Assembly (NCBI GenBank): GCA_043718025.1
Contig: JAYSWN010000113.1
Span: 1-10,590, forward strand
Origin: Pseudomonadota bacterium
Lineage (GTDB): Bacteria; Bdellovibrionota; FAC87; UBA2466
Direction: 5' to 3'
DNA length: 10,590 bases
Part shown: one piece after another, positions 6,954 through 7,706 of the stretch
Layout: every line of letters begins with the position of its first letter
How positions within the stretch are numbered: the first letter of the stretch is position 1
Program-made: the position numbers and the translations under genes
Notes under the pieces: model-generated
Told to the model about the DNA's origin: nothing
Database searches by the model: none
Seen by the model: only the letters and a program-made list of their open reading frames with translations

Positions 6954-7706
6954 TCAGGGAAGCACTTCCGCCACACAGTATTCAACCTTCACTCCGTAGT
7001 TTGCCCGTCCCCACGGAACGATCTCTTCACGCCGTTCAATTATTTTTAGCTTTAACTTTCGGGGAAGAACTACTTCGCTATCAATAACCCCTGCAGAGTA
7101 GGAGCCGGTGGCTAGATCTAACGTTTTGGTCAGAGCTTTTACGTCTAGGCAGGGCTGTCCGCGGGGCAGACGTATCTCAAACACCACTTTTTGAGATCTG
7201 GGCATTTCAGCTGGGCCCCCGCTGCTGCCAAACATAAACGGAAGGGAAGACGAATCTTCACTGTAGGTCGCGGCAAGTCCCACTGACTTTGTTGTCGAAA
7301 GTAGCTGCGGGTACTCTAGCACTTCCCCTTCTTTGGGGAGTGCGCGCCCTTCGAGAAAGTTCTCGCCGCGAAAGACAGTCAGTTTTTTCGTGAGTGGCGA
7401 CTTACTCATTGCCGATTCCAAAGAGGATTGCAGCTTCTCTAAAGTGCTTGCCGTCTCTCCCAGCTCTTTTCGAATCTGCGCCCGACGGTTTGGCGAAGCG
7501 CGGGCATATTCAAGGACGGAGAAACGGAATTGAAAGGCACTAAAGAACCGCGTTAGAGAGGCGTTTTCGTGATCGGTATAGGGCGACGGGGCGATTTGGG
7601 TCAAATCACAAACCGGCGGTTTTGCCTCAGCGCAGGGAGAGTATCCCAAGAGGGATCCCAGCAATGGGAGCAGGCGGTAGAAAAATTTAAGGCGATGATA
7701 CCGCAA
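6954..7706 (-). CDS. Secreted mono-ADP-ribosyltransferase, R-S-E class (C3/VIP2-like, ADPrib_exo_Tox family)
   Basis: LESAMSKSPLTKKLTVFRG (R113), EGEVLEYPQLLSTT (S137), VVFEIRLPRGQPCLDV and IDSEVVLPRKLKLKII (E211) occur in canonical order. Signal peptide ends AEA|KPP. TTG start has AGGAG 10 nt upstream. Confidence 0.9.
   Translation of the reverse strand: MRYHRLKFFYRLLPLLGSLLGYSPCAEAKPPVCDLTQIAPSPYTDHENASLTRFFSAFQFRFSVLEYARASPNRRAQIRKELGETASTLEKLQSSLESAMSKSPLTKKLTVFRGENFLEGRALPKEGEVLEYPQLLSTTKSVGLAATYSEDSSSLPFMFGSSGGPAEMPRSQKVVFEIRLPRGQPCLDVKALTKTLDLATGSYSAGVIDSEVVLPRKLKLKIIERREEIVPWGRANYGVKVEYCVAEVLP

Follow-up and report, generated by a model that had tools for sequence, protein, structure and literature searches.

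ADP-ribosyltransferases (ARTs) that consist of a single A-only domain, carry a secretion signal and have no B component form an established class, to which C3, Vis and SpyA are assigned in excerpts of PMC6628389. The C3 exoenzymes (C3bot, C3lim, C3stau and C3larvin) are minimal secreted enzymes without a translocation subunit; they carry a QxE motif and modify Asn41 of Rho in eukaryotic cells. Vis of Vibrio splendidus (PDB 4XZJ/4XZK) has the canonical ExE motif together with an I/A-N-x-x-L-R motif in helix alpha3. The A components of the binary toxins, which include VIP2, iota Ia, CDTa and C2-I, belong to the same Pfam family but are built from a non-catalytic N-domain and a catalytic C-domain, and are accompanied by a separate pore-forming B component. 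Interbacterial ARTs with the same fold are also known, such as Tre1 of the Tre1/Tri1 pair of Serratia proteamaculans and Lmo0066 of an ART-ARH pair. These rely on delivery by a T6SS with PAAR proteins or as polymorphic toxins, and on immunity of the ADP-ribosylglycohydrolase (ARH) type.

The ART gene described here is carried by a Bdellovibrionota metagenome-assembled genome (MAG; GCA_043718025.1) of 4.14 Mb in 234 contigs, which is 92.4% complete with 4.7% contamination. The window, i.e. the whole stretch of DNA that was analysed, is the complete 10,590-bp contig on which the gene lies.

Gene and genomic context

The gene is a minus-strand ORF of 250 open codons plus a stop, with the stop codon at 6954-6956 and a TTG start codon at 7704-7706; an in-frame TAA stop lies directly upstream of the TTG. 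The GC content of the ORF is 52.3%, against 51.9% for the genome, and its codon usage gives a score above zero, though a low one (0.21, compared with 0.34 +/- 0.08 for the long ORFs of the genome). No RNA data set is listed among the sequencing runs in which the sequence occurs. As it has a convergent neighbour on one side and a divergent one on the other, the gene is read as monocistronic. This agrees with the original prediction, which had described the same arrangement, and both neighbours are coding-like in their codon usage (0.35 per codon for 6153-6845 and 0.30 for 7862-8467). The coordinates of the gene, its parts and its neighbours are given in Table 1.

Table 1. Coordinates of the ART gene, its sequence features and the adjacent genes (positions in the window)
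Feature	Coordinates	Strand	Basis or remark
ART gene	6954..7706	-	ORF reading, PF03496 match, predicted fold
Shine-Dalgarno-like AGGAGAG	7715..7721	-	8 nt before the TTG start; read from the sequence
Signal-like N-terminus, residues 1-28	7623..7706	-	n-region +4, h-region LLPLLGSLLGY (11 residues), A-E-A before K29
Helical N-terminal alpha-lobe, residues 44-104, four predicted helices	7395..7577	-	model and alignments
V-L-E-Y-A-R, residues 64-69	7500..7517	-	aligned to the I-N-x-x-L-R alpha3 motif (MAFFT, 38 sequences)
R113, region 1 (F112-R113, in F-R-G-E)	7368..7370	-	R in 33/33
S137-T138-T139, region 2 (STS variant)	7290..7298	-	S in 31/33
Ser/Gly-rich insertion after the STT strand, residues 147-167	7206..7268	-	low model confidence, pLDDT 57-65
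D209-S210-E211, region 3 (ARTT loop)	7074..7082	-	second Glu in 33/33; first position E in 29/33
Convergent neighbour, 230 aa	6153..6845	+	hydrophobic N-terminus, no family match; 108-nt gap to the ART gene
Divergent neighbour, 201 aa, orphan	7862..8467	+	signal-like N-terminus; 155-nt gap to the ART gene

The ART gene is located within a run of orphan ORFs (6153-6845, 7862-8467, 8471-8806 and 8869-9567), all of which are on the plus strand. Signal-like N-termini were seen in three of these four ORFs, and none of the four had a match in Pfam, NCBIfam, PADLOC or PHROGs. The two ORFs furthest along the run have codon scores of 0.20 (8869-9567, coding-like) and 0.12 (8471-8806, doubtful). A weak Cmr5 match in the PADLOC/PHROGs scan of the ART protein and these four neighbours was disregarded. 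For the 201-aa neighbour the ESM Atlas gave no match good enough to use (best 0.78).

At the other end of the window, 2-1888(-) and 3113-5398(+) encode large polytopic membrane proteins (at least 629 aa and 761 aa respectively) that belong to no Pfam or NCBIfam family. Between them lies 2008-2889(-), whose product of 293 aa weakly resembles Peptidase_S51 and cyanophycinase, with scores under the curated cut-offs (23.0 bits against 23.9; 33 against 126.6 for TIGR02069). Relatives of the 761-aa protein, at 28-37% identity, were found only in the bacterial family to which the source organism belongs (7 of 24 genomes there, 3/3 in the genus, and 0/16 outside the family), which supports the binning of this contig. 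No synteny was detected at the DNA level with three genomes of the same genus.

Family membership and predicted fold

Residues 80-227 of the ART protein match Pfam PF03496 (ADPrib_exo_Tox) with 26.4 bits (E 5.1e-6, profile positions 41-178 of 196). This search had been proposed as a check of the original prediction, and its result is above the curated cut-off of 23.4 bits; in a six-frame search of the genome with the same profile the ORF scored 24.4 bits. The protein had no match in NCBIfam, PADLOC or PHROGs, and phmmer against the PDB sequences gave chance matches only (a designed coiled coil and Fab light chains). An HMM built from 30 other Bdellovibrionota ARTs gave the protein a higher score of 39.9 bits, and aligned R113 to Y-R-G, S137-T-T to S-T-S, and D209-S-E211-V-V-L-P-R to E-x-E-V-L-L-P-R. 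When the subclade of the ART protein was compared with 29 ARTs of the phylum by hhalign, the probability was 96.5% (E 8.7e-10); this alignment begins only at alpha4, and the alpha-lobe has no profile similarity to the canonical one.

A profile of alignment A1, which comprises the ART protein and 32 other sequences, was searched against the PDB and retrieved 53 distinct sequences at E<=1e-3. Vis was the best match (1.8e-34), followed by Tre1 (7e-33), VIP2, Lmo0066, Ia, CDTa, SpvB, Certhrax, ExoT, C3larvin, HopU1, C2-I and C3.

The mature segment was modelled by AF2 with a 38-row alignment (A3), which gave a pLDDT of 89.4 and a pTM of 0.84; this confident model is not independent of the ART alignment from which it was built, and from the single sequence AF2 gave an unusable model (pLDDT 35.9). 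The model shows four N-terminal helices and a beta core, arranged as a single domain of 223 mature residues. Foldseek returned 139 PDB matches for it at E<=1e-3, with a probability of 1.00 to ART toxins. The matches listed were all ART toxins: Vis, which came first (E 2.7e-10), CDTa, Plx2A, C3larvin, VIP2, Ia, Certhrax, C2-I, Lmo0066 and C3. Superposition with VIA-align on CDTa, Ia, VIP2, Tre1, Vis and C3 gave Z scores of 13.8-16.1 and rmsd values of 2.6-3.6 Å over 145-169 residues. In the ESM Atlas the closest cluster (0.93, 172 shared features) consists of ART exoenzymes and is commonest in Bdellovibrionota, in agreement with the phylum given for the source genome. The product of ORF 6954..7706 is accordingly predicted, as the original prediction had proposed with reference to C3 and VIP2, to have the C2/C3-like (R-S-E) ART fold.

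Relatives of the ART protein

Close relatives are scarce. A word-indexed search of 5.8 billion proteins recovered the ART protein itself only, and five proteins when a three-sequence profile was used, while an exhaustive search of 1.84 billion representatives gave 14 matches at E<=1e-3. Two of the relatives are ortholog fragments: P0007 (154 aa, 55% identity) covers residues 34-146 of the ART protein, and P0008 (64 aa, 57% identity) covers residues 188-250. Between them they keep F-R-G-E, S-T-S and S-E-V-x-L-P-R. More distant is P0011, a relative of 337 aa with 26% identity. The nearest full-length relative is P0003, from an uncultured Bacteriovoracaceae bacterium whose genome is placed in the same phylum; it is 25% identical over 147 residues and has the same insertions.

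A Pfam scan of six further matches from the exhaustive search, P0009 and P0014 to P0018, identified five multi-domain ART proteins. Four of these (P0015, P0016, P0017 and P0018) are metagenomic proteins of 571-1014 aa with two to four tandem PF03496 domains, to which P0018 adds, as a fusion, a head-morphogenesis domain of the phage Mu F-like type; in P0014 an ART is joined to an HU-type DNA-binding domain. P0009, a Listeria-Bacteroides repeat protein, has no ART domain and was rejected as a spurious match.

The scan of metagenomic contigs revealed no relative of the ART protein, the protein was not found in the 40 related genomes searched, and the contig scan with the P0003 protein recovered its own contig only. 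Another study contributed a contig of 151 nt that matches residues 159-209 at about 95% identity; all five of the differences listed are synonymous, which is a small sign of purifying selection. The ART protein belongs to a rare subclade, of which only two other members were found, both fragments of 55-58% identity, and this subclade has a changed active site.

Active site

Conservation was counted on the 33 sequences of alignment A1. In a different alignment, A6, the Asn, Arg, Ser and both Glu residues are all invariant, but A6 left out the sequences L003, L012 and L014 as well as the subclade of the ART protein, and so overstates conservation. In the 33-sequence alignment R113 and E211 are the sole invariant columns, E211 being aligned with the catalytic Glu. 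The triad of R113, S137-T-T and E211 was read in ORF 6954..7706 at exactly the residues that had been named for it from the sequence.

Three other positions of the NAD+ pocket are not canonical. At the first position of the ExE motif the Glu/Gln is replaced by Asp209 in the ART protein, by Ala in P0008 and by Lys in P0011; the other exceptions are Asn in L003 and Tyr in L012 and L014. The aromatic residue of region 2, in (Y/F)xSTS, is F or Y in 32/33 sequences and the ART protein is the exception, with Leu135 at this position; P0007 has Leu there too. The alpha3 Asn column holds N in 31/33 sequences and S71 in the ART protein, or Leu65 in the 38-row alignment, where V-L-E-Y-A-R makes the more convincing counterpart of I-N-x-x-L-R. 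The other A1 sequences thus keep the first Glu in 29/32 cases and the alpha3 Asn in 31/32, whereas the subclade of the ART protein keeps neither. Two Asn residues of the ART protein do lie in the alpha3 region, N48 and N73; in P0007 they are Thr and Pro respectively, so the subclade has no conserved Asn in this region, and N48 was ruled out as the alpha3 Asn. The alpha-lobe lacks the canonical Y..IN..LR alpha3 motif, yet it is the best-conserved part between the ART protein and P0007. Excerpts of PMC6628389 describe the alpha3 Asn as absolutely conserved in the toxins that are not pertussis toxin (PT)-like, where it is hydrogen-bonded to the A-phosphate of NAD+, and as absent from the non-catalytic N-domains of C2 toxins. 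The more distant relative P0011 has lost the STS motif as well, which suggests that catalytic constraint is relaxed in this branch.

On this sequence evidence the ART protein appears to be a divergent member of PF03496, without the alpha3 motif and with regions 2 and 3 partly retained. The original description of the protein as an R-S-E ART toxin held for the triad, and had missed that the pocket is not canonical, with its three replaced residues, among them Asp209 of the D-S-E motif. Because several of its NAD-pocket residues are non-canonical, the protein is a putative toxin and no more than likely an active one.

Predicted export, delivery and partner genes

The N-terminus of the ART protein resembles a signal peptide for signal peptidase I, followed by one ART domain, which is the layout that had been claimed for it. 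The N-terminal call is based on a crude hydropathy rule of our own, by which the protein has H=1.96, just below the threshold of 2.0. The N-terminus of P0007 is hydrophobic too and ends in AFA|G, and Cys33, shortly after the A-x-A site of the ART protein, is kept in relatives. A lipoprotein reading of Cys25 was rejected, since Y-S-P-C does not fit the lipobox pattern.

Contig C41 of the same genome carries a complete type II secretion (T2SS) operon (L044:3096-15188(-)). It encodes a PDZ GspC-like protein, a GspD secretin with an N0 domain, GspE, GspF, GspG, two minor pseudopilins, GspJ, GspK and a PilM/GspL-like protein, and so offers an ordinary way out of the periplasm. The original prediction had left the delivery route open; the export step now has a candidate machinery, and entry into a target cell is not explained by it.

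Searches for ARH (PF03747) and macro domains (PF01661) found neither of them near the gene, as had been noted for ARH, nor elsewhere in the genome (92.4% complete); in control genomes the same searches were positive in 7/14 and 8/14 cases respectively. The T6SS sheath protein TssC (PF05943) was likewise not found in this genome (control genomes positive 1/14). No B component was matched by Pfam among the nine ORFs of at least 100 aa in the window, and the genome search for the B component family PF03495, which had no positive control, was empty. The gene thus stands alone within the window, as had been claimed, but it is not unusual in doing so: this architecture is ordinary, because the C3/Vis/SpyA class is known and the same form is usual in Bdellovibrionota.

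ARTs in other Bdellovibrionota

Of 401 Bdellovibrionota genomes, 70 contained a match to PF03496, which exceeded the cut-off in 67; these genomes belong to 46 of 204 genera. Within the family of the source organism PF03496 was detected in three of 34 genomes at E<=0.01, the source genome included. Most of the matched frames in the phylum (59/80) are 190-350 aa long and, by the same hydropathy rule as above, 27 of the 32 ART ORFs examined have a signal-like N-terminus; in size and layout these proteins are like the ART protein. No neighbour family recurs within +/-1.5 kb of the 32 ART loci, except in pairs of closely related genomes, which indicates that a missing partner or immunity gene is the rule in the phylum.

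Two contigs carry tandem pairs of ART genes, C203 of genome G200 (L023: 740-1177 and 2154-2594) and C22 of genome G344 (2525-2908 and 3268-3669). The surroundings of the P0003 ART gene (locus L043) include, within 2.5 kb, a SocA/Panacea antitoxin-domain protein (L043:6406-6915(-)) and a DUF4423 regulator; no ARH or macro domain was found near this gene. Among the texts reached by a full-text literature search, none was found that deals with the role of ARTs in Bdellovibrionota.

Discussion

The ART protein can be compared with the systems introduced above. Like the C3 exoenzymes it is a single-domain protein, no translocation subunit was found for it in the searches above, and its model superposes on them with Z 13.8-14.2; it has DxE in place of their QxE, however, and comes from an environmental Bdellovibrionota MAG. 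It shares the A-only layout of the C3-like subgroup but, lacking QxE, does not belong to that subgroup in the strict sense. The superposition on Vis (Z 14.2) covers 169 residues, at about 20% identity, and here the D-S-E motif and the lack of an alpha3 Asn are what distinguish the ART protein. The highest structural scores were obtained for VIP2, Ia, CDTa and C2-I, with Z 15-16.1 and an rmsd of 3.1-3.5 over some 162 residues. The ART protein is not a binary-toxin A component, however, as it consists of a single domain and the searches above turned up no B subunit. Tre1 (6DRE/6DRH) and Lmo0066 (8ZA7) superpose with Z 14.3-14.5 and Z 15.1 respectively. In contrast to these, the ART protein has a Sec-type signal-like N-terminus, and with neither a T6SS nor an ARH found in its genome it is not a Tre1-type effector. 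Its layout is that of Vis or C3, while the modelled structure most resembles VIP2, Ia and CDTa in their catalytic domains.

Our main reading, to which we give a probability of about 50%, is that the ART protein is an exported R-S-E ART that uses the NAD+ of another cell to modify the proteins of that cell. It would be exported by Sec and then probably by the T2SS of the genome, with cleavage of the signal and exit from the producing cell. The target cell would most plausibly be a bacterial prey or competitor of the organism; that this uncultured family lives as a predator is an assumption. Having entered this cell, the enzyme would bind NAD+ and transfer ADP-ribose to an acceptor there despite its three non-canonical residues. 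No immunity gene would be needed, since the protein would be exported to a periplasm or exterior that is free of NAD+, and it is plausible, as was originally put forward, that export itself protects the producer.

The replaced pocket residues are where other explanations of the protein have to be weighed. It may be an exported ART-fold pseudoenzyme that is catalytically dead and acts by binding, like the non-catalytic N-domains of C2-like toxins. The missing alpha3 Asn, which according to excerpts of PMC6628389 marks those N-domains, points this way, as do the loss of the STS aromatic residue and of the first Glu, the additional loss of STS in P0011, and a Pfam score 3 bits over the cut-off. 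We nevertheless regard this as unlikely, as R113, S137-T and E211 are retained and are conserved in the fragments of 55-58% identity, the five listed differences in the near-identical contig are all synonymous, and a pure binding module is not expected to retain exactly the catalytic triad.

The same residues could also be explained by an active NAD+-consuming enzyme whose chemistry has shifted, so that it is mainly an NAD+ glycohydrolase or transfers to an acceptor outside the classical ones, be it another side chain, a nucleic acid or a small molecule, instead of Arg or Asn. In enzymes of the C2/ExoS type, replacing the first Glu does more harm to transfer than to the hydrolysis of NAD+, and pierisin/Scabin-type QxE enzymes have DNA as their substrate. 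In the subclade it is indeed the first ARTT position that varies (Asp in the ART protein, Ala in P0008, Lys in P0011), whereas the catalytic Glu is kept together with V-x-L-P-R behind it, and the NAD+-binding elements, R and STS/STT, are retained. Yet the loss of the alpha3 Asn and the STS aromatic would affect NAD+ binding itself, which leaves hydrolysis no safer than transfer, and no sequence feature indicates a particular acceptor; we regard a shift of this kind as unlikely too. It is very improbable that the protein is instead a non-exported regulator, with an N-terminus that is a membrane anchor or irrelevant, and that it modifies the proteins of its own producer. Endogenous regulatory ARTs do exist in bacteria, DraT for example, and the signal peptide was judged by a heuristic only. 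The genome searches, however, brought up neither of the reversal enzymes (ARH or macro), the h-region is followed by an A-x-A site with the conserved Cys33 just behind it, and the same N-terminal layout recurs in 27/32 of the homologues from the phylum.

A bolder form of the main reading extends it to the phylum. In this proposal, which is speculative and in our view quite unlikely in its entirety, Bdellovibrionota would share an arsenal of small Sec/T2SS-exported ARTs that have no immunity genes and, as predation effectors, poison the prey from within. The ART gene would then be a rare offshoot, and the rewiring of its NAD+ pocket (alpha3 Asn missing, Leu in place of the STS aromatic, and D/A-x-E) would give it a new acceptor chemistry.

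The ART gene by itself adds one more single-domain secreted ART to those already described, and its value lies in the phylum-wide set to which it belongs and in being a natural active-site variant. As the subclade keeps the R-S-E triad and replaces three other residues of the pocket, it offers a natural test of which residues the ART reaction needs. If the ARTs of Bdellovibrionota act in predation, these enzymes would constitute an unstudied class of prey-directed effectors.
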